Below, one piece after another: positions 29,442 through 62,347 of a stretch of 64,000 nucleotides of DNA. Location: the IMG/VR virus record IMGVR_UViG_3300033069_000856. One strand, written 5' to 3'. The notes beneath the pieces were generated by a model. That model made no database searches and was not told where the DNA came from. It was given only the letters and a program-made list of their open reading frames with translations. Each line of letters starts with the position of its first letter. Positions within the stretch are counted from its first letter, which is position 1. Origin of the DNA: an uncultured virus (IMG/VR IMGVR_UViG_3300033069_000856) (Duplodnaviria > Heunggongvirae > Uroviricota > Caudoviricetes). Both the position numbers and the translations under genes were made by a program.

Positions 29442-30056
29442 ATGAACGAACAAGAAAAGTGTTACCTAGGCTTAGACCTGGCAACGAAAACTGGCTACTC
29501 CTTGCTGACCTCTACAGGTGAGCACGTAGCCTCAGGTGTGTGGAACTTTAAAGCAAAGAGCGGGGAAGACGAGCGGCATGGATTACTCGCCTTCCGTACT
29601 CAATTATCTCAGATTCAAAAAGACCACCCGCAAATTACCGCCATTTTCTTTGAGAAAGTGGACTTCTGCGTTGCAATGCTGGCATACCGTAAGCACTGTA
29701 TGCTGGCAGCGGTACTAGAGCTATTTTCCCTGGATACCAATTTACCGTTAATTCCAGTGGCCGTGGGTACCTTGAAGAAGTACGCCACAGGCGATGGCAG
29801 GGCAGACAAGTCAGAGATGATTGCTGCCGCTAAGAAGGCTTACCCTGTTATCCAGTTCGAGGATGACAACCATGCAGACTCGATCCTAATAGCCCATTGG
29901 GGTGTCCACTATATCCAATCAGGAGGGTCTTTGACCGAACTCCCAGGAGACACCAAAACAAAGAAGGCTCTTGGAGGTAAGGGGCATAAGGGGACCAAAG
30001 TTAAAAAGAAGAAGCCAAAGCAATTTAAGCGTAATCGATTTAAGGGGATCAAATGA
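29442..30056 (+). CDS. ruvC: RuvC-like Holliday junction resolvase
   Basis: LGLDLATKTG, FEKV, LKKYATGDGRADK, DDNHADSI. Confidence 0.85.
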   Translation: MNEQEKCYLGLDLATKTGYSLLTSTGEHVASGVWNFKAKSGEDERHGLLAFRTQLSQIQKDHPQITAIFFEKVDFCVAMLAYRKHCMLAAVLELFSLDTNLPLIPVAVGTLKKYATGDGRADKSEMIAAAKKAYPVIQFEDDNHADSILIAHWGVHYIQSGGSLTELPGDTKTKKALGGKGHKGTKVKKKKPKQFKRNRFKGIK

Positions 30057-30511
30057 GTAATTATGATGAGAATGGCATGCTCCTACCTGATGAGGGGTTC
30101 GGGTTGGAAGTCACAGAAAAGCCCGCTACGTTCGTCTCAGGTGCGGTACGAAGCGACAGCACAGGTCGCGGCCACTATGAGGATGTATCCCCTCTAGCAA
30201 TGGACAGGCTCGCCAAGCACCTAGAGCTTGGTGCTAAGGAACACGGCCCATGGAACTACATGCTCGGGATGGGCATGAAGCGAGGAATGCAAAGCGTTTT
30301 TCGCCATGGGTATAAGTACATGTACCATAAGCTGACTGGTATCCCTCCCAAGGAAGACCATCTGTCAGCCATGCTGTTTGGAATCATTAGCCTGATCCAC
30401 ACCGAAGAGATGATTAAGTTAGGTCTGGCTTCACCAGCGCTGGACGACATCCCAACGTTAGAAACATTGAAAGCCGCAGCAGCAAAACGTCAACAGAATA
30501 AGGATCATTAA
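30053..30511 (+). CDS. dATP/dGTP diphosphohydrolase-like protein (DUF5664 type)
   Basis: SGAVRS...GRG.Y.....A..RLA...E.GA...G.WN...G......S..RH....EDHL.A. Confidence 0.75.
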   Translation: MSNYDENGMLLPDEGFGLEVTEKPATFVSGAVRSDSTGRGHYEDVSPLAMDRLAKHLELGAKEHGPWNYMLGMGMKRGMQSVFRHGYKYMYHKLTGIPPKEDHLSAMLFGIISLIHTEEMIKLGLASPALDDIPTLETLKAAAAKRQQNKDH

Positions 30512-31252: not shown

Positions 31253-34200
31253 ATGCTCTCTGTTAAGAACGTGCCTAGCACAAAAACATTTACTCGCGAT
31301 GAGGCCATGAAGGCCAGCATGGAATACTTCAAGGGCGACAAGTTCGCCGCTGATGTGTTCTTGAATAAGTACGCACTCATCGGAGACGATAACAAGTTTC
31401 TCGAGTCTACCCCGGAAGCTATGCACTGGCGCATGGCTCGGGAGTTTGCTCGTATTGAAAAGAACTACCCCAACCCTATGTCGGAGCAGGAGATCTTTGA
31501 CCTGTTCCATCAGTTCAAGTACGTTATCCCCCAGGGCTCTCCAATGAGCGCCATTGGTAACGATAAGTACATGCAGAGCCTTAGCAACTGCTTTGTGATC
31601 AAGTCCCCTACTGACTCGTACGCAGGTATCCTGCGGACAGACCAGGAGGAAGCACAGATCATGAAGCGCCGGGGTGGGGTAGGCTTTGATATTAGTGAAA
31701 TTCGACCCAAGGGAATGGCCACCAGTAACGCAGCCCGTACCACAGATGGTATTGGTGTGTTCATGGAGCGGTTCTCTAACACATGTCGAGAGGTGGCCCA
31801 AGGTGGTCGTCGGGGTGCACTGATGCTTTCAGTCTCCTGCCACCACCCTGAGATCCGGACATTCATCGACATCAAGCGTGACCGGAAGAAGGTCACCGGG
31901 GCGAACTGTAGTATTCGACTGTCTAACGAATTCATGGAGGCAGTCCGGGCTAACGAGGAGGTAGAGCTTCGTTGGCCAGTGGATTCAGCCACTCCAAAGA
32001 TTCGAGAGAAGACAGACGCAAAGAAGTTGTGGGACTCGATCATTGATGCGGCTTGGACCAGTGCAGAACCAGGACTACTGTTCTGGGACACAGTCAAGGC
32101 AATGACCCCAGCGGATATCTATGCGTCAGTTGGCTATGCCAGCATCTCGACTAACCCATGCGTTACTGAAGATACTTGGATCATGACGGCCAATGGTCCA
32201 ACTCAGGTTAAGGATCTAGTAGGTATCCCCTTCGATGCATTGGTTAGTGGTCAGGCTTACAAGTCCCCAAAGGGGTTTTGGAAGACTGGAAACAAAGATA
32301 CCATCAAGATTACTACGGCAGAGGGGTTCTCTATCCAATGTACCCCTAACCATAAATTGCTTACTTTGAACGCTCAAGGCCAAGAGGAGTGGAAGGAAGC
32401 TAAAGATTTAGTTACAGGTACTCGACTAGTTCTGGATAACCACTCTAATCAGACTTGGAACGGCTCTGGCACGTATGGAGAAGGGTACCTTCTTGGCTCT
32501 CTAATTGGAGACGGCTGCATTTCTTCTGGAACTGCACATCTTTCCTGGTGGGGCTCGACCAAGAAGCACATGTACGAGTTCGTTTCAGAGCTCGCTCAAA
32601 ACTCTTTAAAGTGCCGTGCAGACCTTGGAACAGGGAACACTGAGTCAGACTACTGCACAACTCTGGATAAAGTTGGATTTAACTCTGTAGGGCTTAAGCA
32701 CCTTGCAGATGATTACAACCTAACTGAGGCTAAGAATATCACCCCGGAGATTGAGGCTTCTAGTCCTGATTTCTATCGTGGTATTTTGAGCGGATGGTTT
32801 GATGCAGACGGGACGGTTGGCTACTCTAGCAGCAAGCAGAGTACTTCTGTCCGGTTATGCTCTGTTAATCTTCAAAATCTCTATGCCGCGCAAAGGATGC
32901 TTGCTCGCCTTGGTATTATCTCGAAGATTTACACTAATCGTAGAGAAGCAGGTACTAGATTGCTTCCAGATGGTAAGGGTGGTAGCAAACCTTATCACTG
33001 TCAGGCAACTCACGAACTGTGCATCTCTAAGACAAACGTTCTAAGGTTCCAAGAGCGAGTTGGTTTCGCAGACCCGGACAAGTCAGAAAAGTTAGCAGCA
33101 GTGATTGATAAGCTAAGTGAAAGCAATAGAGGGTTCTACAAAGAATCTTTTACTGCTAAAGTAGCCTCGCTGACACAGTCAGGTACTCAAGATGTATACG
33201 ACTGTACAGTAGAGACAGTTCATCGTTTTGACGCAAATGGTATTACGGCCCATAATTGTGCCGAATTAATCCTTTCTCAATACGACAGCTGCCGCTTATT
33301 GTGTCTCAACCTCATGTCATTTGTCAGTGACCCATACACAGCGAATGCTCGGTTCAATTTCACGAAGTATCGTGCGATTGTCCTCAAAGCACAGCGGCTG
33401 ATGGATGACCTTGTGGACCTTGAGATCGAGGCTATCGATAAGATCCTGAAGAAGATCGTTACAGACCCGGATGACCAGGAGACTAAGGCTTACGAGCTGA
33501 AGCTCTGGCAGAACATCCGGGAAGCGGCTGTCAACGGACGTCGTACTGGGTTAGGTATTACTGCGCTAGGAGACACTATCGCAGCCCTTGGGATGAAGTA
33601 CGGTGACAAGGATAGCATCCAGTTCACCTCTGACATCTACAAGGCCCTTGCAGTAGAGTCCTACCGTAGCTCGGTAATCATGGCTAAGGAGCGTGGGCCG
33701 TTCCCCGTATTCAGCCACAAGCTGGAAGACGGGCACCCGTTCCTTCAGCGCATCTGGGACGAAGACCCAGAACTGTACAGCCTGTATGTGGCTCACGGTC
33801 GTCGCAATATCGCGAATACCACTACAGCACCTACCGGGTCAGTCAGTACGCTTACTCAGACAACCTCCGGTATTGAGCCAGCAGCGTTTATCCACTACTG
33901 CCGTCGTCGTAAGGTAAATCCTTCCGATAAGAACGTACGGGTAGACTTTGTTGACCAGACTGGTGACTCTTGGGAAGAGTACCTGATGACTCACAAGGGC
34001 TTCTTGGACTGGGCTAAGATCAACGGTAAGATCAAAGACTGGACCGATGAAGAGGCCCGTAAGTACGATAAGGATGTGGACATCCCGTTCTTTAAAGAGT
34101 CTCCTTACTTTGGCGCTACGTGCAATGACGTAGATTGGCTCGCCAGTGTAGAGATTCAGGCAGCAGCCCAGAAGTGGGTCTGCCATGCAATCAGCAAGAC

Positions 34201-34846
34201 CTGCAACCTACCTAAGACAGCTACCCGTGAGCTGGTCAGCCAGGTCTACATGAAGGCCTGGGAGTCAGGTTGCAAGGGGTTCACTGTTTATCGGGACGGT
34301 TGCCGTTCCGGTGTAATTGTGACCAACGACGAGAAGACAAAGAAGGAAGAGTGGAAGAAGCGTCCACAGTCTATCAGCTGTGACGTCTTCCCCAAGGTAA
34401 TGGTTAAGGGTTCGCCGTTCTTTGTTATCGTCGGTAAGCAGGAAGACCGCCCTTATGAGGTATTTGCTGGCGTTGGAGCATTGGATACCCACGCAGCCTC
34501 TGGGCAAGTTATCAAGCATAAGCGTGGTGAATACGAGTTCATCGCAGACGACGGATCTCGTGTATCCAATGTCTGTGATCTCGCTACGGATGATTGTGGA
34601 GCAATTACTCGGTTAATGAGTCTCGCCCTTCGTCACAACGTAGACATCAAGTTCATCATCCAGCAGCTCGAGAAGACACCGGGTGACCTGAATAGTTTTG
34701 GTCGTGCTATTGCGCGAACCTTGAAGAAGTATATCCCTGACGGAGAAAAGGAAAATGGTACAACCTGTCCCCAGTGCGGAAATAACTCAGTCACGCGTCA
34801 AGAGGGCTGTATCTCGTGTGCGTGCGGTTGGAGTAAATGTAGCTAG
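31253..34846 (+). CDS. nrdJ: class II (adenosylcobalamin) ribonucleotide reductase containing an intein
   Basis: SLSNCF, RRGGVG, QGGRRGALM, AEPG, TNP|CAE, RRTGLG, TAPTGS, GIEP, KGFTVYRDG; C-terminal Cys cluster; no nrdB in window. Confidence 0.88.
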   Translation: MLSVKNVPSTKTFTRDEAMKASMEYFKGDKFAADVFLNKYALIGDDNKFLESTPEAMHWRMAREFARIEKNYPNPMSEQEIFDLFHQFKYVIPQGSPMSAIGNDKYMQSLSNCFVIKSPTDSYAGILRTDQEEAQIMKRRGGVGFDISEIRPKGMATSNAARTTDGIGVFMERFSNTCREVAQGGRRGALMLSVSCHHPEIRTFIDIKRDRKKVTGANCSIRLSNEFMEAVRANEEVELRWPVDSATPKIREKTDAKKLWDSIIDAAWTSAEPGLLFWDTVKAMTPADIYASVGYASISTNPCVTEDTWIMTANGPTQVKDLVGIPFDALVSGQAYKSPKGFWKTGNKDTIKITTAEGFSIQCTPNHKLLTLNAQGQEEWKEAKDLVTGTRLVLDNHSNQTWNGSGTYGEGYLLGSLIGDGCISSGTAHLSWWGSTKKHMYEFVSELAQNSLKCRADLGTGNTESDYCTTLDKVGFNSVGLKHLADDYNLTEAKNITPEIEASSPDFYRGILSGWFDADGTVGYSSSKQSTSVRLCSVNLQNLYAAQRMLARLGIISKIYTNRREAGTRLLPDGKGGSKPYHCQATHELCISKTNVLRFQERVGFADPDKSEKLAAVIDKLSESNRGFYKESFTAKVASLTQSGTQDVYDCTVETVHRFDANGITAHNCAELILSQYDSCRLLCLNLMSFVSDPYTANARFNFTKYRAIVLKAQRLMDDLVDLEIEAIDKILKKIVTDPDDQETKAYELKLWQNIREAAVNGRRTGLGITALGDTIAALGMKYGDKDSIQFTSDIYKALAVESYRSSVIMAKERGPFPVFSHKLEDGHPFLQRIWDEDPELYSLYVAHGRRNIANTTTAPTGSVSTLTQTTSGIEPAAFIHYCRRRKVNPSDKNVRVDFVDQTGDSWEEYLMTHKGFLDWAKINGKIKDWTDEEARKYDKDVDIPFFKESPYFGATCNDVDWLASVEIQAAAQKWVCHAISKTCNLPKTATRELVSQVYMKAWESGCKGFTVYRDGCRSGVIVTNDEKTKKEEWKKRPQSISCDVFPKVMVKGSPFFVIVGKQEDRPYEVFAGVGALDTHAASGQVIKHKRGEYEFIADDGSRVSNVCDLATDDCGAITRLMSLALRHNVDIKFIIQQLEKTPGDLNSFGRAIARTLKKYIPDGEKENGTTCPQCGNNSVTRQEGCISCACGWSKCS
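32159..33256 (+). mobile_element. intein (366 aa) with LAGLIDADG homing endonuclease
   Basis: starts CVTEDT, block B CTPNHK, LLGSLIGDG and LSGWFDADG, ends VYD...ITAHN before Cys+1. Confidence 0.92.
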
Positions 34847-36040: not shown

Positions 36041-36925
36041 GTGCTGACACAAGTCACAACCTGCCACGGTGATTCAAACGTAGTCTTGGCGAATGTGCAT
36101 AGATGGTTGGCCTCCAGTATTGATCAGTTAGTCCTAGTCGACTACGCCTGCCCTAATAACGTAGGCAAACTCCTACTCAACAAAGCAGCCGGTAAGAACG
36201 GTAAGCTTACTATCATCCAGGTAGACCCTAAGGAAGCTGGCCCGTTCTACAACCAAGCCAGAGCTAAGAACATTGGAGCTAAGGCAGCCAAGGGAGAGTA
36301 CCTACTCTTCCTTGATGCTCGAGCGACTGTCAATAACGACTTTATTGAAGAGGTTAAGCTCCAGCTAGAAGGGCAGGAAAGCACAGACACTGAAGCAGGA
36401 GGGGATGTAGCACCTGTCTGTCCTTCTATGTTCATCTGCCAGGATGCAGTGAAATTCATCAATAAAGATGGATACAAGGAAGCAGCTAAGTACACCAAAG
36501 AGATCCAGTCTGGGGCACCGCTTAAGTTCAACCAGCTAATTGTGCGGAATTCAGTTCTGTACAACCTGAATGGGTTTAATGAGGCTAACCTGGTACCGGG
36601 ATTAGAGGTGGTAGATTTCCTATGCCGAGCATTTAGCGATGAAACCAAGTACGCAACATCAACTGAATTTGGATACACTCTGGATGAGGCCATCAGCTTC
36701 AGGTTTAAAGAGCCGTCCCCTGATACGGCGGAGTCGTCGATTAAAGAGGTTTTACTTAACAGAGATACAGACAAGAATGTCGAAGCGCTTGACCTATACA
36801 GTATTATGAGGGAAATGAGCCCTCGAGCCCAACCAGGTAAACGCTTTGGCATCAATGGCTACAATAAGAATGTTCGCATGTTTGTGGGAGGCTCAGAACG
36901 AGTCTTTAACCCAGGATTAGATTAA
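36041..36925 (+). CDS. GT-A fold glycosyltransferase-like protein
   Basis: VLVDY, ARAKNIGAKAAKGEYLLFLDA, LNGFNE. Confidence 0.7.
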   Translation: MLTQVTTCHGDSNVVLANVHRWLASSIDQLVLVDYACPNNVGKLLLNKAAGKNGKLTIIQVDPKEAGPFYNQARAKNIGAKAAKGEYLLFLDARATVNNDFIEEVKLQLEGQESTDTEAGGDVAPVCPSMFICQDAVKFINKDGYKEAAKYTKEIQSGAPLKFNQLIVRNSVLYNLNGFNEANLVPGLEVVDFLCRAFSDETKYATSTEFGYTLDEAISFRFKEPSPDTAESSIKEVLLNRDTDKNVEALDLYSIMREMSPRAQPGKRFGINGYNKNVRMFVGGSERVFNPGLD

Positions 36926-39203: not shown

Positions 39204-39455
39204 ATGGATATTCGTATTACAGACCCCTCCGCTATTGATGCGGAGTTGGTTGCGGGCACAGACGGTGCGTGGCAGTTGAACTTCTACAAAAGCCGCAAAC
39301 ACGCTAATGCCCACCTTATTGAAACAGTTAGTCAAGGCGGCACTGTCCTTGGTAGATACCTTATTAGGGTTGCCCCTAATGGGAGTGTGTCCTTAGAGAA
39401 CTTAGGAGATACCTTTGAGCCAGAATCCGACCAGCCAACCAATTCCAACTCCTGA
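39204..39455 (+). CDS. hypothetical protein
   Basis: coupled ORF. Confidence 0.55.
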   Translation: MDIRITDPSAIDAELVAGTDGAWQLNFYKSRKHANAHLIETVSQGGTVLGRYLIRVAPNGSVSLENLGDTFEPESDQPTNSNS

Positions 39456-39819
39456 GGAGTCCCCTGTAACCGTGGTCAATGAGGCCCTAAAGCCTTTCTC
39501 TGACAAGGTAACCCTTATCGTCTCGGCTAGCATTAACCGTGTAGAGCTGGAGTCAGCCGGGGTAACCTTTGCTAACCGGGATGCCCATATCGGGTTATTC
39601 ACCGGTACCCTGGATGAGATATTCAAGTTAATCGATGATTGCTCTCTACCCCCTACCGATGTCAAGATCATTGGTAAGAACGGGGTGACTGCCGACTTCT
39701 TTATTGAGCCTCCCAAGTACTGCCTGAAGTTAGACGGGTTTAACTACGTTGGCGGCAATGTCTCGAACTCGGTAGTCAGGTTTAAAACAGGTAATTACAT
39801 CATCCCTATGCCTACTTAA
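39415..39819 (+). CDS. hypothetical protein
   Basis: SD aggag, TTG start. Confidence 0.55.
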   Translation: MSQNPTSQPIPTPEESPVTVVNEALKPFSDKVTLIVSASINRVELESAGVTFANRDAHIGLFTGTLDEIFKLIDDCSLPPTDVKIIGKNGVTADFFIEPPKYCLKLDGFNYVGGNVSNSVVRFKTGNYIIPMPT

Positions 39820-39850
39820 TTTCTGGCATATATGCGTCAATATATCTTGG
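39815..39850 (+). promoter_or_regulatory. 36-nt promoter-like motif, copy 9 (plus-strand orientation)
   Basis: cttaatttctggcatatatgcgtcaatatatcttgg aligns without gaps to the reverse complement of copy 1 (cttaac...gtcattatatattga). Confidence 0.65.
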
Positions 39851-40297
39851 ACCTGTCTTTAGACTTTCAGTCTGATTGATGGGTATAGTCCCTCCCTTGG
39901 AACGCCGCCTGGGGTCCTAGCCCCTTGCCTGAGTTGAGCCTTAGTTCCCGCTCTGTGCTCCTCAGCTGCCGTACAGTCACATGTACGGCAGCGGCACAGC
40001 CCCACCAGTTAATTATGGCCGAAACCACTCCCCTCCCCCTAGTACGGTCCAGCAGAGCGTATGTGGCGGAGAATGTGGTTTATCTGGGTTAGTCGTAACA
40101 CCCAGTAGGCGGTGGAGCAATCCACTGATAACCATTTTGGCTTGTGGGGCTTTGCCGCTGTAAAAGGCGGGGGCGCTAAGGTGCCCAGTTGTTCAGGTGC
40201 ATTAATATTATGTCACTTAGAGAGTAGCGGTCGGTTAGCCGACTATGATGGGCCAATTAGGCTCCTCTCGCTGGACACTGGGTACCTTAGCGCCCCT
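39851..40297 (+). ncRNA. unidentified large structured RNA or leader (about 450 nt)
   Basis: no credible ORF; many stems with plus-strand G-U pairs, a GCAA tetraloop and a 20-bp stem 40170-40189/40277-40296; promoter motif immediately upstream. Confidence 0.6.
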
Positions 40298-40312
40298 TAC
40301 AAGGAGATAAGA

Positions 40313-40528
40313 ATGGTCAGCGTGGTTGCTATCAAGGACGGGAGCAACAAGAAGCCGGTATTCGACTGTGTCATCAAGGAAGATGATCACGAGGGACTTG
40401 GAAGAGTCTGTGAGTCCCTGAAGTTGGATCAGCCTGTGTTTGACGAGGCTGTGGCTTCAGCGATTTTCAATAAAAAGAAAGTCGCCTTGACAGTTCGCGG
40501 GATGAGGGTTGTAATCCAAGCCGATTGA
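40313..40528 (+). CDS. hypothetical protein (71 aa)
   Basis: SD aaggag then ATG 40313. Confidence 0.6.
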   Translation: MVSVVAIKDGSNKKPVFDCVIKEDDHEGLGRVCESLKLDQPVFDEAVASAIFNKKKVALTVRGMRVVIQAD

Positions 40529-40574
40529 TTCTCGCAGAGCCTGCGAGAATCGAGTAGACTATAGGTAAGCCCTT

Positions 40575-40626
40575 AAGGGCTCCATTCTTTTTGCTGTTCA
40601 TATATAACAAAAAGAATGGAGCCCTT
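40575..40626. repeat. 19-bp perfect inverted repeat
   Basis: aagggctccattctttttg / caaaaagaatggagccctt. Confidence 0.85.
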
Positions 40627-40698
40627 CGTTTCTTAACCGCTAACTGCTCTCCCATTTGTTTTACGTATTGAGATATCTATGGTTGGAACCCTACAATA

Positions 40699-41061
40699 AT
40701 GGCTCGTCGCAGCAAAGCGAAGAGATGGAAGGAAAGACTTCAAACCCCGCATAAGCGGATAACGAAGCTAGACCTTCTAATAGATCCAACCATACCCGTT
40801 CCATTGAGCCGAGAAAAAGCTCGAGAGCTTAAAGCTTGGCTCAACGAATATAAAGCTAAATCAGGTTGTGTCAATAGCTGCGGGGAGACCCACCCTGCAG
40901 CTTTGAGCTTTCATCATAGAGTGCGGTCTCAGAAGGCCTTTTGCATTGGCGAAAGTCATAAGCTCGGTAAGACTAAGACCCAGGTCGAAGCCGAGGTTGC
41001 TAAATGTGATGTCATCTGCCATAATTGTCACGCTAAATTGCATTGGCGTGAGACCCACTAA
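40699..41061 (+). CDS. small HNH endonuclease
   Basis: CVNSCG...LSFHH...KCDVICHNCHAKLH. Confidence 0.8.
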   Translation: MARRSKAKRWKERLQTPHKRITKLDLLIDPTIPVPLSREKARELKAWLNEYKAKSGCVNSCGETHPAALSFHHRVRSQKAFCIGESHKLGKTKTQVEAEVAKCDVICHNCHAKLHWRETH

Positions 41062-41101
41062 ACAGTAAATTAACAAACAAATAAGATCACGGAGGTGCTC
41101 C

Positions 41102-42523
41102 TTGCGAGTCGCTGTCGTGTTTGGCGTTTTCTCCGATACTAACAAACGGACACCTGCTCCGTTTGTTCGCGCTAATACCCTTAGCGTGATCACTGTCGCT
41201 AATCCCCATTGTGCTGTCACCATGAACCTGCGGAGTGTCATTCCTCAGGATAACGGTGATATTCACATCGGGGCTGTCGGTTACCCGTACACCCCTGAGA
41301 AGCACGATCTCTCTATCAAAGAGGTTCGGGCTACGAAGAGTGGAAAGGTGAACTTCAAGAGCTCTTCCAAGTCAGCCTCCGGCGTGCCGGTGGAGTTCGA
41401 CTTCAACTCCAAGAAGTGGCTCGACATCAACGGTAAAGAACACCATGCTTCTGGTGTTAAGCCGGTTGAGGTTCGGTACAACTTCAAGGAAAAGCGGTAC
41501 CTGGACTCAGCGGGGGTGGCCTACCCCTATGAGTTCGTGCGTTTCCGCTTCTACAACAGCTTCGTTCTGGACAACCACCGGCGTGCGTTAGAGGCCGGGC
41601 AGACCAGCAACCAAGACCAGCCCTACATCAACTGGATGGAGGAGATCGAGGCCAAGAAGGGTGGGCATGTCCTTGACGAGGGTGTGCCCATCGGCAGGGC
41701 CATGTCCGATATCCTTCGTCAGTTGTACATCAATCGAGAGCTGGCGCTGACCTCTCAGATTGAGATGCCTGAGTTCTTTGTCAGCAGCGTTACCCCTATC
41801 GAGTACGACAACGATGTGCTTGACCAGGATATCCTCACCATTGCGAGGAGTCCTGGCAATCGGTTGGCGTGTGAGCGCCCTCCGTTTGAAGGGTTCATCC
41901 AGGGTGCTACCCATGACGGTGAGTCCATGCTGGTGGACTTCCAGCGAGTCTCAAGGGCGACAACGCCCAAGGGTCACATTTTCAAGGTAACGGACGCTCC
42001 TCAGACAATCGTTATCCCGGATCCGAACCAAGTGGTCTCGGTGAATGGGGAGCCTATTGATCTGGCTGTGGGTACCGAAGTCCACCCGTCCAGGGTCGTG
42101 AATCCGTTGAAGGCGGTAATGCGGCTCATCCCGTATGACCCCAGCTATGCGTCCATCAGAGAGGTGGAAGAGCGCTGTGGAAAGGCGCTCATCCACTACG
42201 TTCGACAGCAGCTAGTCGAACAGTCCACCCCGGTTATCCAAGGCATCAAGAGCGTAGCCCTGCGGTACGTTAAGAAGCTGCCACCGGACTACAACCCCAA
42301 CAACGTCTGGGCTCGTACAGGGCACAGCCAGTACATCTATGAAATGCCCGTTGGGGCGTTCACAGGTCAGATTGGCCGTATCAAGTACGACTTCCTGCAC
42401 CACCCATGGTTTGATCGATCAGCATCGTACTACAGTAAGAGAGAGCCTGTAGGCCTGCGCCCCGGCACCCCGGTTCGGGTTGTCGATAAGCAGGCAAACC
42501 CTGGTGTTCCTCAGAACGCGTGA
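41102..42523 (+). CDS. hypothetical protein (473 aa)
   Basis: SD ggagg, TTG start. Confidence 0.7.
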   Translation: MRVAVVFGVFSDTNKRTPAPFVRANTLSVITVANPHCAVTMNLRSVIPQDNGDIHIGAVGYPYTPEKHDLSIKEVRATKSGKVNFKSSSKSASGVPVEFDFNSKKWLDINGKEHHASGVKPVEVRYNFKEKRYLDSAGVAYPYEFVRFRFYNSFVLDNHRRALEAGQTSNQDQPYINWMEEIEAKKGGHVLDEGVPIGRAMSDILRQLYINRELALTSQIEMPEFFVSSVTPIEYDNDVLDQDILTIARSPGNRLACERPPFEGFIQGATHDGESMLVDFQRVSRATTPKGHIFKVTDAPQTIVIPDPNQVVSVNGEPIDLAVGTEVHPSRVVNPLKAVMRLIPYDPSYASIREVEERCGKALIHYVRQQLVEQSTPVIQGIKSVALRYVKKLPPDYNPNNVWARTGHSQYIYEMPVGAFTGQIGRIKYDFLHHPWFDRSASYYSKREPVGLRPGTPVRVVDKQANPGVPQNA

Positions 42524-47982: not shown

Positions 47983-48438
47983 ATGCAGACATTTTTGCCA
48001 CACACTGGTTTTCATGAATCTGCCAGTTGCTTAGACAGGGCTAGACTAGGTAAACAAAGAGTAGAGGTTTTACAACTGCTCACTGCCCTGTCTATGAAGG
48101 CTGAAGGTATTAAGTCTGGCTGGCAGAACCACCCAGCGTGCCTGATGTGGGTAGGCCATAGGTATGCCCTAGCTGCGTATGGAATTGCCGTGTGCGATGA
48201 ATGGATTAGCAGAGGGTATAAAGACACGCTGCGACCTAGGTTACAGTCTATTCTTAAGGAATTAGAGTCCATCGGGGAATCCCTAGAAAACCCAGCTTGG
48301 TTGGGGGTACATGAGTTCCATGCCTCCCATCGAGCTCGTCTTCTAATGAAAGACCCTGAGCATTACGGTAAGTTTGGGTGGGTAGAAGAACCCTGCGGCC
48401 CTGAAGGGTATTGGTGGCCGACAAAGAACGGATACTAA
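47983..48438 (+). CDS. pyrimidine-dimer DNA glycosylase-like protein (MSMEG_6728/DenV type)
   Basis: MQTFLP, LD..RLGKQRVE, GW.NHPA..MW, EW..RGYKD, H.SHR..L..KDP..Y. Confidence 0.85.
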   Translation: MQTFLPHTGFHESASCLDRARLGKQRVEVLQLLTALSMKAEGIKSGWQNHPACLMWVGHRYALAAYGIAVCDEWISRGYKDTLRPRLQSILKELESIGESLENPAWLGVHEFHASHRARLLMKDPEHYGKFGWVEEPCGPEGYWWPTKNGY

Positions 48439-48473
48439 CTAAAGCAGCAGAGCTTAACGGTTCTGCTGGTTTT

Positions 48474-50147
48474 ATGAACACACCTTGCGGTCCTGATATC
48501 AAAACTATTAATGTAGCTAATATTCGCCTTGGCTTTGCAACTAATAGCAGCAGTACTCACAGTGTTGTCATCAATCCCGAAAGGTTCGGAGAAGTGGAGT
48601 GGCCCTTGCAGGAGTTCTTACGCGTTCTTGTGCGTGATTCTTCGGAGAATTACAGGATAACCGACCATAACCATCGGCTGGTCCTGTTCGCCAAGAGCCT
48701 GTACTGCTCCTTGGTTGGCGCCATTGGCAGCCAGGCTGCCCAGGCTACGGTGTGTGAGTTCTGCTGTGTCGACCGGCACGTGCTCACCCACTACGAGACT
48801 GAGGATGAGATCCGCATGGTGATCCCGACAACCAAGGTCGGCGGTGGCCTCAAAGATCCTCGCCCATTCAGCAGGTCGGACAGGGAAGACGTTCACCCCA
48901 CTACGTACTGCGAGGAGTACCTGCGAGACCTGATGAACTTCCTGGTCTCCAACAAGTCCGTTGGCTGGGTCCGCACTCGGGACAATGATGAGGGCCTGGA
49001 CGAAGAGGGTGGTGACCTGCGGGACAGGCTTGCGCCTGGGCACTATGCGGGTACCACCTTGAGCCTGGATCCTCGCAGCCAATGGGTTGCCAGGGCTGAT
49101 GGGCCTTGGTGGGTCCTGATGAACCGCCTGACCGGTGCCAAGCTCCGGGTCAATTTCTCGGATATGGAGGCGACCTACCCGAAGTCTACTCTGCCGGAGT
49201 TGGTGGATATTAAGATCACCGACTTCTGCCCCTACAACTGCTCCTTCTGCTACCAGGGCAGCACCAAGGACGGCAAGCACTCTAAGGAAGCCGACCTGGA
49301 CAAGTACATCCAGGTGCTGAAAGCAATGGGTACGTTCGAAGTGGCGATTGGTGGTGGTGAGCCCACACTCCATCCCAAGTTCAACTTGTTCATCCAGTCC
49401 CTCTACAACGCCGGTATTCAGCCCAACTTCACTACCAGGAACCTGGCGTTCTTCAAGAAGGAAGAGAACCTCAAACTCATCCAGGGCACAGGAGCCAAGT
49501 TCGCCGTCAGCGTCGACACGTTGAAGGCAGCCAAAGAAGCTGTTGAACAGCTTGAGGCCTCTCTGTTTATCCGTGAAATTGCAGACGGTATTAAGGTCCC
49601 ACAAGGGATCAGCTCGTACTGCCGGGATCAGAACCCGTACACCCTGCAGGTGATCCTTGGCAGTGACGTAGAGGCGGTGGTCGACATACTTCTCTACGCC
49701 AGCACTAAGAGCATCAATGTCACCTTGCTCGGGTATAAGACTACCGGGCGAGGCGCTATTGACTTGAAGGTGAAGGGCACCACCATCAAGAAGCTGCAGT
49801 CTGCCTATGCCAAGGAGTTCTCCACTCGGATCGAGCAGCTTCTCGACCAGTACAAGTTCCGCATCTCGATCGGCGTGGATACCCTCGCCATCGAGCAGCT
49901 CCCGTTCCTCAAGGGAGACAAGTACAGATATCAAGTTACAGCGGCTGAGGGGAAGTTCTCCATGTACATTGATGCTGTGGCCAACGTGATGGGCAGCAGC
50001 AGTTACGTGGAGCCGGAAGCCTATGTTCCGATCCCCATGAAAGCCCCCAAGGCTAAGGCTAAGGAATGGGAAGAGATCCCAAACCAGCCTGACCTTGATT
50101 TCCGTGGTATGTATACAGCAATCGCTAAAACTTATGCTGAATGGTGA
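48474..50147 (+). CDS. radical SAM protein with N-terminal GFATNSSS domain
   Basis: CPYNCSFC, AIGGGEP; N-terminal IRLGFATNSSSTHS. Confidence 0.85.
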   Translation: MNTPCGPDIKTINVANIRLGFATNSSSTHSVVINPERFGEVEWPLQEFLRVLVRDSSENYRITDHNHRLVLFAKSLYCSLVGAIGSQAAQATVCEFCCVDRHVLTHYETEDEIRMVIPTTKVGGGLKDPRPFSRSDREDVHPTTYCEEYLRDLMNFLVSNKSVGWVRTRDNDEGLDEEGGDLRDRLAPGHYAGTTLSLDPRSQWVARADGPWWVLMNRLTGAKLRVNFSDMEATYPKSTLPELVDIKITDFCPYNCSFCYQGSTKDGKHSKEADLDKYIQVLKAMGTFEVAIGGGEPTLHPKFNLFIQSLYNAGIQPNFTTRNLAFFKKEENLKLIQGTGAKFAVSVDTLKAAKEAVEQLEASLFIREIADGIKVPQGISSYCRDQNPYTLQVILGSDVEAVVDILLYASTKSINVTLLGYKTTGRGAIDLKVKGTTIKKLQSAYAKEFSTRIEQLLDQYKFRISIGVDTLAIEQLPFLKGDKYRYQVTAAEGKFSMYIDAVANVMGSSSYVEPEAYVPIPMKAPKAKAKEWEEIPNQPDLDFRGMYTAIAKTYAEW

Positions 50148-51845: not shown

Positions 51846-52188
51846 AGTACCTGAGAGAGTATGCGTCGCAGAGGATGACTACGAATTGGGTATTAACAGA
51901 CTGATGAACCAGATTGCTTTTTTACAGAAGCGTAGGGGTAGCCGCAGGTCCAAGGTGCATAACAGGGACAGTTCAGATGACTTTATGCCGGTTACAGGGG
52001 CGACCTACGCCCGTATTACTCCAGCTCGAACTTGGGTTTCTAGCTATGCAGTGACTATGGGCTGGGAAGTACTGATGGAGAGGACATTCAACTACAGATA
52101 CTGTACCCCAGATTATAATAAGCACCCTAATTGGGCAGGTATCTACTCTTGGCCACGTACATTTGACCTACCAGAAACAGAGGACTAA
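51811..52188 (+). CDS. MxTL-family protein (MKTLQ)
   Basis: SD aagga. Confidence 0.7.
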   Translation: MKTLQYTHPNIEVPERVCVAEDDYELGINRLMNQIAFLQKRRGSRRSKVHNRDSSDDFMPVTGATYARITPARTWVSSYAVTMGWEVLMERTFNYRYCTPDYNKHPNWAGIYSWPRTFDLPETED

Positions 52189-52587
52189 ATGAAAACACTC
52201 TACACCATAACTCTTAAATACAGTGATAGGAGTGATGAATATTCCGAAATGTATTCATCAGATTACACCGGCGATCATTTCCTTGAGCTGACATTTAATC
52301 AACGGAAGATTAGGCCAGTGAGGGATACTTATGTGGTTGAAGAGGGATTTGCTGGGGCTGCCTACACAATGAAAGCCGAGTCAGCTCTGAGCAAGCATTC
52401 TTGTGCTAAGCTTGAGGATTGGTGCAGACCTTACCATGTAGGTAGGTTAGATAGTACGTTTGATCCAGAGTGGTACACTCAGCGCTACCCAGAGGCAACC
52501 AAGCTCTGGAAAGATTCGCTTGATCGAGATGAGACCATGGTACTCAGGAGACATTTCATTGAAAACACTTCAGTACACAAATTGTGA
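52189..52587 (+). CDS. MxTL-family protein (MKTLY)
   Basis: abuts upstream stop. Confidence 0.7.
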   Translation: MKTLYTITLKYSDRSDEYSEMYSSDYTGDHFLELTFNQRKIRPVRDTYVVEEGFAGAAYTMKAESALSKHSCAKLEDWCRPYHVGRLDSTFDPEWYTQRYPEATKLWKDSLDRDETMVLRRHFIENTSVHKL

Positions 52588-52825
52588 AGTCTTGGACTGC
52601 AGCACCTCTGGTGGTTATCTGATATCGTATGGGCCTTATATACTTAATGCCTTGTGCACTCCGTGGAGAAAACTGAAATGGTATTCAGTCTTACGATATC
52701 AAGCATTAATATACCGCTTTAGAACACGCGATAGCCTTTATCAGAATGTGGATTGTCGATGCAAACCCAGAACTAAATTCAAGGATTTTGACTTACTGAT
52801 GGAGGTCTCTCATGAAAACACTTGA
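52559..52825 (+). CDS. MxTL-family protein, paralogue group A (TTG start)
   Basis: SD aggag; PWRK, VD.R. Confidence 0.65.
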   Translation: MKTLQYTNCEVLDCSTSGGYLISYGPYILNALCTPWRKLKWYSVLRYQALIYRFRTRDSLYQNVDCRCKPRTKFKDFDLLMEVSHENT

Positions 52826-53072
52826 TTGGGTTAAGCTAGCCAATTCACGAAGAAGGTCTGAGGTCCAGCCGTACACCTATAGGGGTATAACTGACACACT
52901 CATATACCTAAGCAGTCGTTGGCGTAAAACTAAGTTTGACTGGCAGGATACTGACGTTAGGCTTAGTGCCGGAGAGCTCGGTAGATACTGGGTCTTACCT
53001 TTGGACAAACGCTACAGGACTAAAGACTGGGATAGCGTTGCACTGTTCCCCTTATCGGTGGTCGTCAAATGA
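52812..53072 (+). CDS. MxTL-family protein, group A
   Basis: SD ggagg; RWRK, LPLD.RY. Confidence 0.7.
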   Translation: MKTLDWVKLANSRRRSEVQPYTYRGITDTLIYLSSRWRKTKFDWQDTDVRLSAGELGRYWVLPLDKRYRTKDWDSVALFPLSVVVK

Positions 53073-53323
53073 AAACACTGAACCTAACTGTCTTATACAA
53101 ACCTATCCCTAGTAACTACAGTCCAGCTTTAGCGTATAGCATAAAGCTCTGCCTAACCAGGATGTCGCAGCCATGGCATAAACGCTTAAAGATTTGGGAC
53201 TCAAACGTAGTACGGTGGAGTAGGATCGGATTTACACGTATGTATGACCTTCCAGTTGATGATAGGTTCAAGTTCAAAGACTTCGTATCCCAAAAGGACT
53301 TTCTCATCCTGAAGTTCAAATGA
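53069..53323 (+). CDS. MxTL-family protein, group A
   Basis: RMSQPWHK, YDLPVDDRF. Confidence 0.7.
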   Translation: MKTLNLTVLYKPIPSNYSPALAYSIKLCLTRMSQPWHKRLKIWDSNVVRWSRIGFTRMYDLPVDDRFKFKDFVSQKDFLILKFK

Positions 53324-53583
53324 AAACACTCAATTTCGTTAAATTAGCCAAGAATGATATAGTCAGATTTTGCTCTGCCGATAATGAACTGGCAAATATA
53401 CGCTGCATGCTATCTAGAATGTCAAGACCATGGCGTAAGCATTTGTACGTAGGTGAGGGTTCTAGTGTGTCTTGGCACAGAACTGGATTCGTGTATGTGT
53501 ACGATTTGCCAGTGGATAATAGGTACAACGAACTAGATTACTTAACCGATTTACCGCTTGCCCTAACGATCAAAATCAAATGA
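53320..53583 (+). CDS. MxTL-family protein, group A
   Basis: RMSRPWRK, YDLPVDNRY. Confidence 0.7.
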   Translation: MKTLNFVKLAKNDIVRFCSADNELANIRCMLSRMSRPWRKHLYVGEGSSVSWHRTGFVYVYDLPVDNRYNELDYLTDLPLALTIKIK

Positions 53584-53843
53584 GAACACTAGACTGGCCT
53601 CAGTTAAACCCACCACCTCTTACATGGCGTGGCCTATCAGAGGTTGTTCTTAATGAACTAAATGATGCTTTGCACGTGCTTTCACTCCCATGGGCGTCAT
53701 CAAAAACAGTTAATAACCACTGTACGATACACGGCAATCGTTATGGCTTTCTGAATATTTGGGATGCTCATCTGGATATGCGGTATAAGCCCAGGCCGTT
53801 CATGTCAGACAACGCACTCCAATTGTTGATAGAGGTTAAATGA
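53580..53843 (+). CDS. MxTL-family protein, group A (MRTL)
   Basis: SLPW, WDAHLDMRY. Confidence 0.7.
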   Translation: MRTLDWPQLNPPPLTWRGLSEVVLNELNDALHVLSLPWASSKTVNNHCTIHGNRYGFLNIWDAHLDMRYKPRPFMSDNALQLLIEVK

Positions 53844-54142
53844 AAACACTACGAGCCCAAAATCTCAGTTATGCAGAACAGAACTCAGCTAAGACTTTAC
53901 GGTTCTGCTTCAACATGATGACCGGTCTCCGGTACCTGGTGGTGGACCAGCACAAGCCTGGCTCCCTTAAAAGCCTTCCAAGGATGAATCCAAGAGCTGT
54001 AGTCAAGTTCAAGAAGGATAACGTAGAGTGCTCCCGCAGTTCTGCCCGTGGTAAGGAAGAGCAGGCCAAGGAAGGGCACCACTGGTCAAGGCCCATCTAC
54101 GGGGCCTTCTCGATTAACTCAGAACTTGACACCAGTATTTGA
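53840..54142 (+). CDS. MxTL-family protein (MKTLR)
   Basis: ATGA overlap. Confidence 0.7.
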   Translation: MKTLRAQNLSYAEQNSAKTLRFCFNMMTGLRYLVVDQHKPGSLKSLPRMNPRAVVKFKKDNVECSRSSARGKEEQAKEGHHWSRPIYGAFSINSELDTSI

Positions 54143-54172
54143 CTTCTAAGCCAAACCAGGTAAACTACATAA

Positions 54173-54796
54173 ATGGCAACAATTACCCCTAATACTCAGT
54201 ACCAGCCCGGATCAGTTCCTGGATTCGAGAGCTTCACAATGATCCCTACTAGCAAGTCAACCGCTACAGGGGATGATTTCTCTGGTTTGGCTATGGGAGG
54301 GTACTCCCCCCATGAGGCCGCCCCTACCTTGGAATATGATGAAAATGGTAGGGCCTATGGGGTACGTGATCCCCAGACTGGGCGTATCTACAACGTTTCT
54401 AATCTACCGCCCAATGTGACCAGCCAGGACCTCGCTAACTTCATTGCCAGCGTCCGGATGCCCCCTAAGGTACAAAGCGCCCCAGCGGTCTCTAATGCCC
54501 CCAGGAAGCAAGCTATGGAGAAGCCTAGAACCACCTCCAATATTGTCCTGAAGCTTAATGGTATTAAAGTCTCATTAGCGGTATTAGAGGGTATTGTCAG
54601 CGATGACAGGACCAGCTTAATGCTGATATTCCCTTCCGAGAACGAACAACCAATTGAACTAGATAGACAGCTAGAGGGCCTTGTATTCGCCCTCCCCACC
54701 TGTAGCCTAGTGTGTAGCTACTACGGGCAGAAGTTCAACCTGAAGTCCGGTGACACTGCGGTTATCTTTTTGATCGACTCGATCCAGGATAGCTAA
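54173..54796 (+). CDS. hypothetical protein interrupting the MxTL array
   Basis: no MxTL; preceded by ttgact-N16-taaact sigma70-like promoter, possibly leaderless. Confidence 0.65.
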   Translation: MATITPNTQYQPGSVPGFESFTMIPTSKSTATGDDFSGLAMGGYSPHEAAPTLEYDENGRAYGVRDPQTGRIYNVSNLPPNVTSQDLANFIASVRMPPKVQSAPAVSNAPRKQAMEKPRTTSNIVLKLNGIKVSLAVLEGIVSDDRTSLMLIFPSENEQPIELDRQLEGLVFALPTCSLVCSYYGQKFNLKSGDTAVIFLIDSIQDS

Positions 54797-54808
54797 AAGA
54801 AAGCACAA

Positions 54809-55069
54809 ATGAAAACACTGAAGAATCCCCGGTGGCTTCACCTGGGGATTTTGTGGCATTGTATTAAGAACTGGAAAGAGAGCGTTAAGAACCATGGTAT
54901 CCACACCTTCCTACAGTCGACCCACTTAATGGCTCTTGGCAGGAGGGTAGAGCTCCTAAATGACGTAGCCACCTTGTCGAGCTACCCTATGTTCTTCGGT
55001 AGTACTCCTAGTAATAACATATGTAGGAAGACTGAGATTAGGCGGAGGAAGTACCAATTCAAACGCTAA
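54809..55069 (+). CDS. MxTL-family protein (MKTLK)
   Basis: ATG 54809. Confidence 0.7.
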   Translation: MKTLKNPRWLHLGILWHCIKNWKESVKNHGIHTFLQSTHLMALGRRVELLNDVATLSSYPMFFGSTPSNNICRKTEIRRRKYQFKR

Positions 55070-55377
55070 AGTCTTCTGACGTGTTCATTACGCACGAACC
55101 TTTTATAGACAATTACGATACTAGTTATTACCTTTCGCTGCTGTATGTTGAGCAGCAAGTAGACAAGTTTAAACTGAGGTGGGAGTGGTATGCTGTTACT
55201 GGTGCACGTATTAAGTTTGATAACGTGTTAAGAAGGGGAAAATGCTCGCTATTGTTCCAGCACCTATACACAGAAGAAGTCAAGGATAGAAAAGAAATGG
55301 GTATAGGCTGTGCCCTAGCCGACTGGCCCCATATCCCTAGCACACAAATCAAACTCTCAAGTAGGACATTCCTATGA
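55057..55377 (+). CDS. MxTL-family protein with ATT start (ATT-CAA-ACG-CTA), group B
   Basis: SD ggagg; in frame with the 55081 ORF; paralogue of the next gene. Confidence 0.65.
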   Translation: MQTLKSSDVFITHEPFIDNYDTSYYLSLLYVEQQVDKFKLRWEWYAVTGARIKFDNVLRRGKCSLLFQHLYTEEVKDRKEMGIGCALADWPHIPSTQIKLSSRTFL

Positions 55378-56270: not shown

Positions 56271-56271
56271 A

Positions 56272-58368: not shown

Positions 58369-58563
58369 CTACTGGGTACTCCCAGATGTGACTTAACTTA
58401 GGTACGAAGCCGAGGTAGGTATGTACTTCAAGAAGAAGGTGTTTGTACCCCCTGGTGAGTTTCATGGGTTGGAGTACAACACACTACACTCCAGGACCAA
58501 CTTTCTTAACCCAACATCCATCCCGCACTATCGTTGGGTGCATGTCTACATGGAGGCGTACAA

Positions 58564-61616: not shown

Positions 61617-61618
61617 CT

Positions 61619-62345: not shown

Positions 62346-62347
62346 CC

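Follow-up and report, generated by a model that had tools for sequence, protein, structure and literature searches.

A folded non-coding stretch

The locus raises the question of what resides in about 450 nt on the plus strand (39851-40297) where each of the three plus-strand frames contains stop codons. The window referred to below is the whole 64-kb stretch of uncultured-virus DNA that was analysed. The folded stretch is a real, unclassified element, and its RNA is a solid candidate for function rather than a demonstrated case. It is read here, with a probability of roughly 0.4, as the cis-acting leader (or an intercistronic RNA) of a short phage transcription unit. A sequence-only reading had proposed a phage ncRNA-type element, and this stands: the stretch is non-coding, strongly folded on the plus strand, outside the catalogued families and kept in strain relatives. 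Its 3' border had been set a few bases before the Shine-Dalgarno sequence of the gene starting at 40313, and the folded stretch does adjoin the ribosome-binding site of that gene. The stretch had also been called the longest without a credible gene. The 493 nt at 39820-40312 indeed carry none, but the superlative hinges on judgement: a gene-poor rival of 760 nt (11112-11871) has no plus-strand ORF of at least 50 aa, its only ORFs lying on the minus strand (95 and 61 aa).

The plus strand of 39851-40297 folds to -218.6 kcal/mol, compared with -158.8 +/- 5.9 for shuffled sequences (z -10.17), and 0 of 100 shuffles equalled the native sequence, so that the folding comparison suggested along with the proposal came out in its favour. 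The minus strand gave a z of -5.63 in the same comparison. A window-wide scan places the strongest local fold of the 64 kb within this stretch, and its four domains are individually significant (z -3.8, -3.8, -6.5 and -9.2). Mismatches had been said to resolve as G-U on the plus strand; 13 of the 154 predicted pairs are G.U. AT skew is negative in the folded stretch and positive in the flanking genes.

The RNA does not belong to a catalogued family. Rfam 15 (4227 models) gave no match at gathering score in the whole window, in agreement with the earlier failure to recognise a known RNA. Relaxing the threshold to E up to 10 gave 3 matches in 39700-40450 and 16 in 39500-41300. All resemble miRNA or sRNA hairpins, and their scores of 7-25 bits fall short of the respective cut-offs (35-176). 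ARAGORN found no tRNA or tmRNA gene in the whole window, and no paralogue of the RNA lies elsewhere in the 64 kb.

Related sequences are few. Searches with blastn found nothing for 39300-41100 among GenBank phages or for 39820-40312 among plasmids, and tblastn of the 473-aa protein and of the protein relative P0007 found nothing among phages. IMG/VR viral contigs contain no relative of the 473-aa or 134-aa protein, of the 71-aa protein (searched as an alignment) or of the DUF6745 protein, and a related-locus search of metagenome and genome contigs was empty. Two exact RNA patterns are absent from IMG/VR viral contigs, and metagenome contigs are likewise empty. The protein relatives are single Logan-derived sequences only, and the proteins of the more distant relatives have 45-59% identity; P0009-P0011, from a representative search, were rejected as repeat-driven false positives. 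Word searches of the literature found no published description of the RNA.

Motif at the 5' border

A perfect, self-matching 10-bp palindrome, GCATATATGC (39826-39835, assigned to neither strand), separates the end of the 134-codon gene (stop at 39817-39819) from a promoter-like core. The relative X5 has no listed difference from 39778 to 39866, which spans the palindrome.

The window contains a recurrent promoter-like motif, TCAATnTATArTGACC with a downstream TTAAG. Canonical copies lie at 11482, 11773, 13378, 14251, 14311, 14381 and 23806. Its core TCAATATAT occurs four times, always on the plus strand (0.27 expected), and the pattern TCAATNTATNNTG(N)ACC has six matches, all on the plus strand (0.00 expected). 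A gap-free 36-nt copy of the promoter had been placed directly before the RNA, which was not borne out on two counts. The 35 nt at 39816-39850 do not recur in the window, even with as many as 3 mismatches allowed, and the site itself, TCAATATATCTTGGACC (39837-39853, plus strand), is a divergent copy, identified from the core and pattern counts. It has the 9-nt core and TG..ACC in common with the others, and differs in an extra base found in this copy only, in TATCTT instead of TATAAT/TATAGT, and in having no downstream TTAAG. Transcription may instead come from upstream, a point that counts against a leader.

Domains of the RNA

Domain 1 (39851-39884, plus strand) is a two-tier hairpin with a UUC loop (-13.6 kcal/mol, z -3.84), and it contains the agact-ttc-agtct stem (39861-39873) of the first reading. 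In X5 the change at 39867 falls in the loop and that at 39874 converts a G.U to an A-U pair. Between domains 1 and 2 lies a C-rich single-stranded linker, CUCCCUUG (39892-39899, plus strand), with no listed difference in X5. Its predicted partner is the Shine-Dalgarno (SD) region at 40300-40307, with thermodynamic pair probabilities of 0.55-0.97 for transcripts starting at 39851.

Domain 2 (39899-39999, plus strand; -46.6 kcal/mol, z -3.79) has three hairpins, at 39911-39924, 39929-39965 and 39966-39992, the last a perfect 11-bp hairpin. Across 39904-39996 it has at most one unlisted difference from X5. Domain 3 (39990-40159, plus strand; -83.6 kcal/mol, z -6.46) has an interrupted 25-bp closing stem leading to a three-hairpin junction, and the fold places the junction hairpins on the plus strand at 40022-40081, 40084-40105 and 40110-40127. 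The apical part of this domain, about 40020-40130, is hypervariable between strains. Domain 4 (40170-40296, plus strand; -74.6 kcal/mol, z -9.16) is a 20-bp duplex with one G.U that continues, after a one-base bulge, in a 6-bp extension, with a three-way junction closed by it. Among near-perfect inverted repeats it ranks first in the window, and it is also the top plus-strand outlier of the window-wide scan.

All of the stems listed in the sequence-only reading exist as complementary segments at the positions given there. These include ggaac/gttcc (39899-39903/39944-39948), ctgtgct/ggcacag (39953-39959/39993-39999, around the 11-bp hairpin), and the 20-nt arms 40170-40189/40277-40296 with gttcag/ctggac and gagag/ctctc; gccccac/gtggggc, ctgggt/acccag and cggtgga-GCAA-tccactg were located as well. 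Most are used in the minimum-energy fold. That fold prefers competing pairings to ggaac/gttcc, ctgtgct/ggcacag and tggtttatc/gataacca, so these three are best seen as alternatives. Two features picked out by eye, a pairing of a CCUA loop with a UAGG linker and a self-complementary AAUAUU loop, were discarded as not conserved or not above chance. With 450 nt and four independent domains, the RNA far exceeds what SD masking and a cleavage site would need, an observation that runs counter to a leader.

Changes between strain relatives

The relatives are public sequencing contigs. Fifteen runs from five studies contain part of the stretch; none is on record as RNA, and three wastewater libraries are guessed to be RNA. 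Four relatives were compared (X4, X5, X9 and X11), each as separate contigs, none of them joined across the region. Positions refer to listed substitutions up to 40115, where scoring ends. Outside the listing are 32 differences, and, of the substitutions, 14 of the 28 of X5 and 9 of the 20 of X9.

The 5' third of the RNA has four listed differences in 146 nt, and the 5' part of the RNA varies less than the coding sequence next to it. The upstream 134-codon gene has 22 listed differences, 20 of them at third codon positions. The indels that relatives carry in the folded stretch are of 1, 1, 3, 4, 1, +1 and +1 nt. Relatives lack 8 of the 18 nt of hairpin 40110-40127, and X5 has 14 substitutions and 10 deleted letters within 40031-40127, with the fold energy still kept.

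The observed strain changes preserve the fold better than random ones. With the X5 changes, 40000-40150 folds to -59.9 kcal/mol compared with -42.3 +/- 5.6 for equally many random changes (1 in 1000 as good), although this largest test is flattered, since the null scatters deletions and the real ones cluster in one hairpin. Hairpin 40036-40070 with the X5 changes has -16.1 versus a null of -8.0 +/- 3.1 (fraction 0.0135). A double compensatory change occurs once (40044 A>G with 40060 U>C), and two one-sided changes keep pairing. Unpaired positions (34%) take 10 of the 18 listed substitutions (p 0.049), and four of the eight at paired positions break a predicted pair.

The 71-codon gene and the proposed unit

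The folded RNA ends beside a ribosome-binding site (40300-40312, plus strand), made up of the Shine-Dalgarno AAGGAG (40301-40306) and its spacer, for which pairing is predicted within the full leader. The site serves a conserved 71-codon gene (40313-40528, plus strand). The gene has two relatives of 70-71 aa with 45-46% identity. It is probably co-transcribed with the leader; no terminator-like site separates the two, and one lies behind the gene. A more distant relative has homologues of both the 71-aa and the 473-aa protein, each on a contig of 14,799 nt, and these are probably one and the same contig. The model of the 473-aa protein is poor (pLDDT 34.7). That of the 71-aa protein is confident (pLDDT 89.5), with the order strand-strand-helix-helix-strand-strand. 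It has no Pfam or PHROG family and no Foldseek match at E up to 0.001, and its best VIA match (Z 5.8) is a designed protein.

Two hairpins follow. A 13-bp hairpin (40525-40553, plus strand) overlaps the stop of the small gene; the fold of 40520-40640 has a z of -7.76. Behind it, a perfect 19-bp inverted repeat (40575-40593/40608-40626) followed by a U-rich tail forms a plus-strand element (40575-40637) that is terminator-like and/or may be a second duplex processing site. In the scan by 150-nt windows this hairpin ranks second on both strands. The 71-codon gene is flanked by the two best near-perfect inverted repeats of the 64 kb (20 nt, 95%; 19 nt, 100%).

The leader contains a segment complementary to the SD, and the two are predicted to be paired. 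In the full leader the predicted unpaired probability of the SD (40300-40306) is 0.01-0.37. When the 5' end is set at 40286 the SD is predicted to be partly free (0.11-1.0). In a transcript from 39600 it is predicted to pair with another segment, 39958-39962. For a T7-type RNase III site the expected length is some two turns of RNA helix, or at least about 20 bp. The 20-bp duplex of domain 4 and its 6 bp have this length, and the duplex may be regarded as a candidate RNase III-type processing site.

We infer a transcription start, a cleavage and an effect on translation. The unit would begin at the motif (39837-39853) and comprise the folded RNA of about 450 nt, the 71-codon gene and, behind it, two strong hairpins, at 40525-40553 and at 40575-40626, the second with the U-rich tail. 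In the intact transcript, pairing of the C-rich segment 39892-39899 with the SD would keep the small gene untranslated. An RNase III-type enzyme may then cut the 26-bp near-perfect duplex adjoining the SD, which would detach the leader and free the ribosome-binding site. With the 19-bp duplex downstream of the gene also taking part, the products would be a small mRNA protected by hairpins and, apart from it, a stable folded RNA of about 430 nt.

Alternative explanations

The RNA may instead found a new family of structured RNAs that stand alone and act in trans. It would be the 5' part of a transcript from which processing releases it, with the small gene a mere neighbour. This is a tentative but substantial possibility. 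Its four independently stable domains (z -3.8 to -9.2) are more than a translational operator needs, no Rfam family matches, and the conserved 5' third with a hypervariable domain 3 apex resembles the core and periphery typical of functional RNAs. The 26-bp duplex would supply a defined, protected 3' end. The target of such an RNA might, equally tentatively, be a protein, a host defence factor or the RNA itself through self-assembly. However, no terminator separates the RNA from the gene, homologues in the databases searched are confined to one narrow phage lineage, there is no sign of abundance or of a partner, and the 71-aa protein lacks both a basic character and a recognised RNA-binding fold. 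A more specific version is rather doubtful: a new class of four-domain phage RNA of about 450 nt, cut from its transcript at the duplex and acting in trans as more than a translational leader, with a conserved 5' core and a strain-hypervariable apical module (about 40020-40130) for a variable partner, such as a host defence or RNA-binding factor. Put-like antitermination in cis, in which the nascent leader binds polymerase and allows read-through of the terminator into the HNH endonuclease gene and the 24-kb run beyond, appears unlikely. The RNA does lie directly behind a promoter-like motif and upstream of the terminator-like 19-bp hairpin with its U-rich tail, such an element would need a strong terminator just downstream, and every gene downstream of the leader is on the plus strand. 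It is, however, several times larger than known put elements, and the HNH gene, which is the next downstream, has its own sigma70-like site. The 13-bp and 19-bp hairpins directly behind the small gene also speak against a leader for the whole 24-kb run. The boxA of the E. coli rrn operons has a 13-nt consensus, which may not be that of the host; it has no plus-strand match in 39851-40297 at up to 3 mismatches, and boxA-like matches in the whole window at that threshold number 21, with 19.1 expected.

Inverted repeats are dense here and include the perfect palindrome 39826-39835, and the minus strand also beats its shuffles, as might be seen if they were DNA structures or protein sites of a replication origin, packaging site or recombination site. 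The strand asymmetry (z -10.2 versus -5.6) makes such a DNA-level element very unlikely, as does the conversion of 13 G.U pairs to C.A mismatches on the other strand. The region also has no direct repeats or iterons, its G+C is above the window mean rather than AT-rich, and the change at 39903 in a relative creates a new G.U pair. A self-splicing intron or mobile ribozyme might be tied to the HNH homing-endonuclease gene 400 nt downstream, in a genome with other selfish elements (its DNA polymerase gene is split by an HNH gene, and its ribonucleotide reductase has an intein). This is disfavoured as highly improbable: no group I, group II or small-ribozyme model matches at E up to 10 (Intron_gpI with permissive filters), hairpin 39966-39992 lacks both the bulge and a GNRA loop, and no reverse-transcriptase gene was noted nearby. 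The relative of the upstream gene is equally long (134 aa), and the 71-codon and 473-codon genes each have their own SD and start. Fused forms are absent from the two relatives of the 473-aa and the one of the 134-aa protein, a weak test with so few. That the stretch is a non-functional spacer, its fold a by-product of composition or chance, is hardly credible when no shuffle folds equally well, the stretch is the top outlier of the window, its 5' part differs less than adjacent coding sequence and natural changes keep the fold energy; in its favour, a review (PMC8250186) points out that the fold of a single sequence is by itself weak evidence of functional structure.

Comparison with known RNAs

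Phage T7 has an early-region leader with sites for RNase III processing, one of them immediately before gene 0.3. Here, too, a leader of several hundred nt would lie behind a phage promoter, with a long duplex directly upstream of the ribosome-binding site of the first gene. Duplex hairpins flank genes in both, and protective ends would remain after cleavage. The two have no sequence or family relation, however, and the present duplex exceeds that of T7 in length, is almost perfect (20+6 bp) and forms the closing helix of a three-way junction. The T7 leader is mostly unstructured RNA carrying promoters, whereas four stable domains are found here, with cleavage as a proposal.

In the lambda N-leader, RNase III cleavage of the 5' leader relieves a structure that hinders translation. 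The likeness lies in a predicted long-range structure that sequesters the SD and in the adjoining duplex as RNase target. The present RNA differs in being much larger and known from thermodynamic prediction alone, with no nut or boxA found. The put element of HK022 consists of two stem-loops, each well under 100 nt. Like the present RNA it is structured, would act while nascent, and is placed between a promoter just ahead of it and a terminator further on, but the RNA here has about 450 nt and four domains.

GOLLD, ROOL, raiA, OLE and HEARO are large "ornate" RNAs with Rfam families, treated in cryo-EM work (PMC12286853). Like them, the present RNA is large, multi-domain and strongly folded, and some ornate families occur in phages and prophages. 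It matches none of their covariance models, at gathering score or at E up to 10, and, unlike them, adjoins a ribosome-binding site and lacks its own terminator. As an unclassified structured RNA from uncultured phage sequence it also resembles the candidates predicted in viral and phage contigs (PMC10690425).

Large structured phage RNAs are few and their function is mostly obscure, and the present one is unusually well defined for a single sequence. It has the most stable fold in 64 kb and clear domain borders, and the SD masking and the two duplexes that bracket the gene are directly testable. Should it act in trans, the large phage RNAs, a short list so far, would gain a new family; should it be a leader, one small gene would be under elaborate RNA-level control. 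The phage lineage is almost unrelated to anything cultured: most of the scanned proteins have no family, and the best DNA polymerase match is to T5-like phages, with 24-26% identity.

A folded non-coding RNA between two phage genes

The interval 39820-40312 separates a 134-codon gene (39415-39819) from a 71-codon gene (40313-40528), which AAGGAG at 40301-40306 provides with a good Shine-Dalgarno sequence. Within it, 39851-40297 on the + strand carries an RNA element that is real, non-coding, strongly and strand-specifically folded and outside the catalogued families, in a novel phage lineage; its function we infer. The sequence-only reading, which placed a structured RNA directly behind a gap-free copy of a promoter motif, holds as a whole apart from the gap-free copy. 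All three + frames contain stops (5, 8 and 11), and the ORFs are short ones or a 5' extension of the 71-codon frame. The stretch also has a negative AT skew and a G+C content that rises to 52-58%, and differs in this from the flanking genes. The direct evidence that it is non-coding is the lack of codon periodicity together with the indel sizes in X5, a strain-level relative. Third codon positions hold 20 of the 22 listed strain differences in the upstream 134-codon gene, and third-position periodicity is absent from those of the RNA region, where X5 has deletions of 1, 1, 3, 4 and 1 nt and two insertions of 1 nt each.

No Rfam 15 family matches at its gathering score anywhere in the window. 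Around the RNA region, every match at E up to 10 was a hairpin resembling a miRNA or sRNA model, at 7-25 bits against cut-offs of 35-176, and none came from a model of a group I or group II intron, a riboswitch, an ornate RNA or a small ribozyme. ARAGORN finds no tRNA or tmRNA in the window, in agreement with the sequence-only reading.

Fold and its significance

The + strand of the region has a folding energy of -218.6 kcal/mol; 100 dinucleotide shuffles average -158.8 +/- 5.9 (z -10.17), and not one of them is as stable. The - strand has a z of -5.63. G.U pairs make up 13 of the 154 predicted + strand pairs. Folded alone, each domain is more stable than expected, with z of -3.84 for domain 1 (39851-39884), -3.79 for domain 2 (39899-39999), -6.46 for domain 3 (39990-40159) and -9.16 for domain 4 (40168-40297). 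The region is thus modelled as a chain of independently stable + strand domains; the long-range helices of the whole-region fold are weakly supported (pair probabilities of about 0.5). All of the stems named from the sequence are present where they had been placed, and most are used in the minimum-energy fold. Three of them (ggaac/gttcc, ctgtgct/ggcacag and tggtttatc/gataacca) are displaced by competing pairings, so alternative pairings remain in domain 2 and at the base of domain 3. When every 150-nt window of the 64-kb sequence was folded and the energy regressed on G+C, the strongest + strand outlier was 40151-40300 (z -5.1) and the second was 40501-40650, directly 3' of the small gene.

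Strain variation and possible selection on structure

Parts of the stretch are present in 15 sequencing runs from five studies (river, wastewater and marine), and four of these runs provided the contigs compared here. X4 has seven pieces, all identical to the window. X5 covers 39715-39996 with 8 differences and no gaps, and 40000-40458 with 28 differences and 12 gap letters; X9 covers 40036-40518 (20 differences, 10 gap letters) and X11 40155-40449 (4 differences). Conservation along the RNA is uneven. In X5, 39778-39866 has no listed difference and 39851-39996 has four among those listed (one of that contig's differences is unlisted); 40031-40127 has 14 listed substitutions and 10 deleted letters. 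Both X5 and X9 lack 8 of the 18 nt that form the GNRA-capped hairpin at 40110-40127. The segment 40020-40130 is thus a strain-hypervariable spot inside the RNA, the 5' part being by contrast about 3% divergent, and it could be under relaxed constraint or diversifying selection. Assembly contigs from three runs end in or near it.

Eighteen listed substitutions, from a listing that reaches only to 40115 and lacks 32 differences, were mapped onto the fold. Ten fall at unpaired positions, which account for 34% of all positions in the region (binomial p 0.049), two are one-sided changes that keep the pair (G.U to A-U and C-G to U-G), and two form a compensatory A-U to G-C exchange at 40044/40060. 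The remaining four break predicted pairs; two of them hit the opposite partners of a single terminal G.U pair, and a third falls in the deleted hairpin. With the X5 changes applied, the predicted energy of 40000-40150 is -59.9, against -42.3 +/- 5.6 for equal numbers of random changes (fraction as good 0.001), with -23.9 against -15.9 +/- 4.5 for 40019-40084 (0.046) and -16.1 against -8.0 +/- 3.1 for 40036-40070 (0.0135); this null spreads deletions that in X5 cluster in one hairpin, and the relatives compared are close ones. The energy comparison gives moderate support, short of proof, for selection on RNA structure.

Possible roles of the RNA

No terminator-like site lies between the RNA and the 71-codon gene. 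The window has 18 reported inverted repeats, only two of them above 90% complementarity, and the small gene lies between these two. One has 20-nt arms at 40170-40189/40277-40296, in domain 4; its duplex continues for six further pairs past a one-base bulge, with 4 nt left between its end and the Shine-Dalgarno region. The other, with 19-nt arms at 40575-40593/40608-40626, is a perfect repeat with a U-rich tail, and follows a 13-bp hairpin that spans the stop codon of the gene. RNase III substrates are duplexes of about two turns, and the early genes of phage T7 are bracketed by duplex sites of this type. The two long duplexes flanking the 71-codon gene resemble that arrangement, and by prediction are candidate sites. 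The Shine-Dalgarno region has its complement in a C-rich linker (39892-39899), and is predicted to be paired in transcripts from 39851 (unpaired probability 0.01-0.37) and partly free when the 5' end is set at 40286. For a transcript from 39600, a second CUCCU segment (39958-39962) is the predicted partner instead.

We put at roughly 40% the reading that the folded RNA is a cis-acting leader that would mask the ribosome-binding site of the small gene until duplex-specific cleavage removes it, leaving the folded RNA free and the small mRNA protected by hairpins. Its main weakness is that 450 nt in four domains go far beyond what masking requires. That size fits a reading in which the RNA is itself the product, acts in trans and founds a new family, as do the conservation of the 5' core and the hypervariability of the apical module; this reading is somewhat less probable. 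The put-like antitermination suggested in the sequence-only reading, acting across the downstream terminator, has a low probability, and the evidence is neutral on it; an E. coli-type boxA, a consensus that may not be the host's, was not found in the RNA region.

An element acting as DNA is hard to reconcile with the strand asymmetry of folding, the G.U pairs and the lack of iterons, and has a very low probability. Slighter again are the chances of an intron or mobile ribozyme, which is countered by the lack of a covariance-model match, the equal length of the upstream gene's relative and the start signals that the downstream genes carry of their own, and equally those of a region without function.

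On sequence comparison the 71-aa protein is real, with a conserved length and 19 invariant columns in a three-sequence alignment, and its model is confident (pLDDT 89.5; strand-strand-helix-helix-strand-strand). It is not basic, so nothing marks it as the leader's RNA-binding partner.

Promoter-like motif

A recurrent + strand motif, TCAATnTATArTGACC with TTAAG about 15 nt on, occurs at 11482, 11773, 13378, 14251, 14311, 14381 and 23806, often with a short hairpin behind the motif. Three tandem copies stop 36 nt short of the start codon at 14417, a placement in keeping with a promoter. The motif shows no recognisable -35 element and probably represents a phage-specific class of promoter. The copy before the RNA (39837-39853) has the common 9-nt core (four occurrences, all +, against 0.27 expected) and TG..ACC. 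It has one extra base, TATCTT in place of TATAAT/TATAGT and no TTAAG, which makes it a divergent relative; the 35 nt taken for a gap-free copy are single in the window at up to 3 mismatches. As in some canonical copies, the final ACC starts a hairpin (39851-39884). No terminator-like site was found between the upstream gene and this copy, so read-through from upstream is as possible as a start at the putative promoter.

Among the local folds of the window, 13401-13600 ranks third in stability (both strands, z about -4.3); it lies directly 3' of the 13378 copy and overlaps competing + and - strand ORFs. A 760-nt segment at 11112-11871 is a candidate second non-coding region. Its + strand lacks ORFs of at least 50 aa, its - strand has just two, of 95 and 61 aa, and Rfam gave nothing there at E up to 1; it contains two promoter-like motif copies and terminator-like hairpins.

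Phage lineage and other features

Sequence comparisons place the phage very remote from cultured phages. The locus has no DNA match among GenBank phages, and the DNA polymerase is closest to those of T5-like phages (24-26% identity). PHROG families were matched by 6 of 19 proteins in one scan and 3 of 30 in another, and Pfam families by 6 of 19 and 11 of 27. The flanking proteins have just one or two relatives each among billions of sequences, all from Logan contigs: one for the 134-aa protein (66% identity, equal length), two for the 71-aa protein (46% and 45%, 70-71 aa) and two for the 473-aa protein encoded downstream (84% and 59%). Protein, exact-pattern and nucleotide searches of viral, metagenome and genome contigs, GenBank phages and plasmids gave no related DNA locus.

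A free-standing gene for a 120-aa HNH endonuclease (40699-41061) separates the small gene from the conserved 473-aa gene; it has its own sigma70-like site (TTGAGA-18-TACAAT, 40668-40697) and also occurs in the X5 relative. Many small ORFs at 52000-63600 and 5940-6610 share an ATGAAAACACT (M-K-T-L) start, which makes up several direct-repeat families (D3-D8), and none of 15 scanned ORFs of at least 100 aa from 52.2-63.6 kb matched a PHROG family. A dATP/dGTP diphosphohydrolase N-terminal domain, ThyX, a family 2 glycosyltransferase and a 578-aa radical SAM protein belong to a nucleotide-metabolism/modification gene set (30053-30511, 15931-16719, 36041-36925 and 48411-50147) that is perhaps a sign of modified DNA bases; the scanned ORFs included no recognisable PurZ-like gene. 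The gene for the family A DNA polymerase (264-4331) is in two parts: the polymerase domain begins in part 1 (264-2681), which holds its first half together with a uracil-DNA-glycosylase-like domain and an exonuclease, part 2 (3747-4331) encodes the remainder, and a 304-aa HNH endonuclease ORF (2685-3599) lies between them. Residues roughly 340-668 of the ribonucleotide reductase large subunit (31253-34846) are an intein that carries a LAGLIDADG endonuclease domain.
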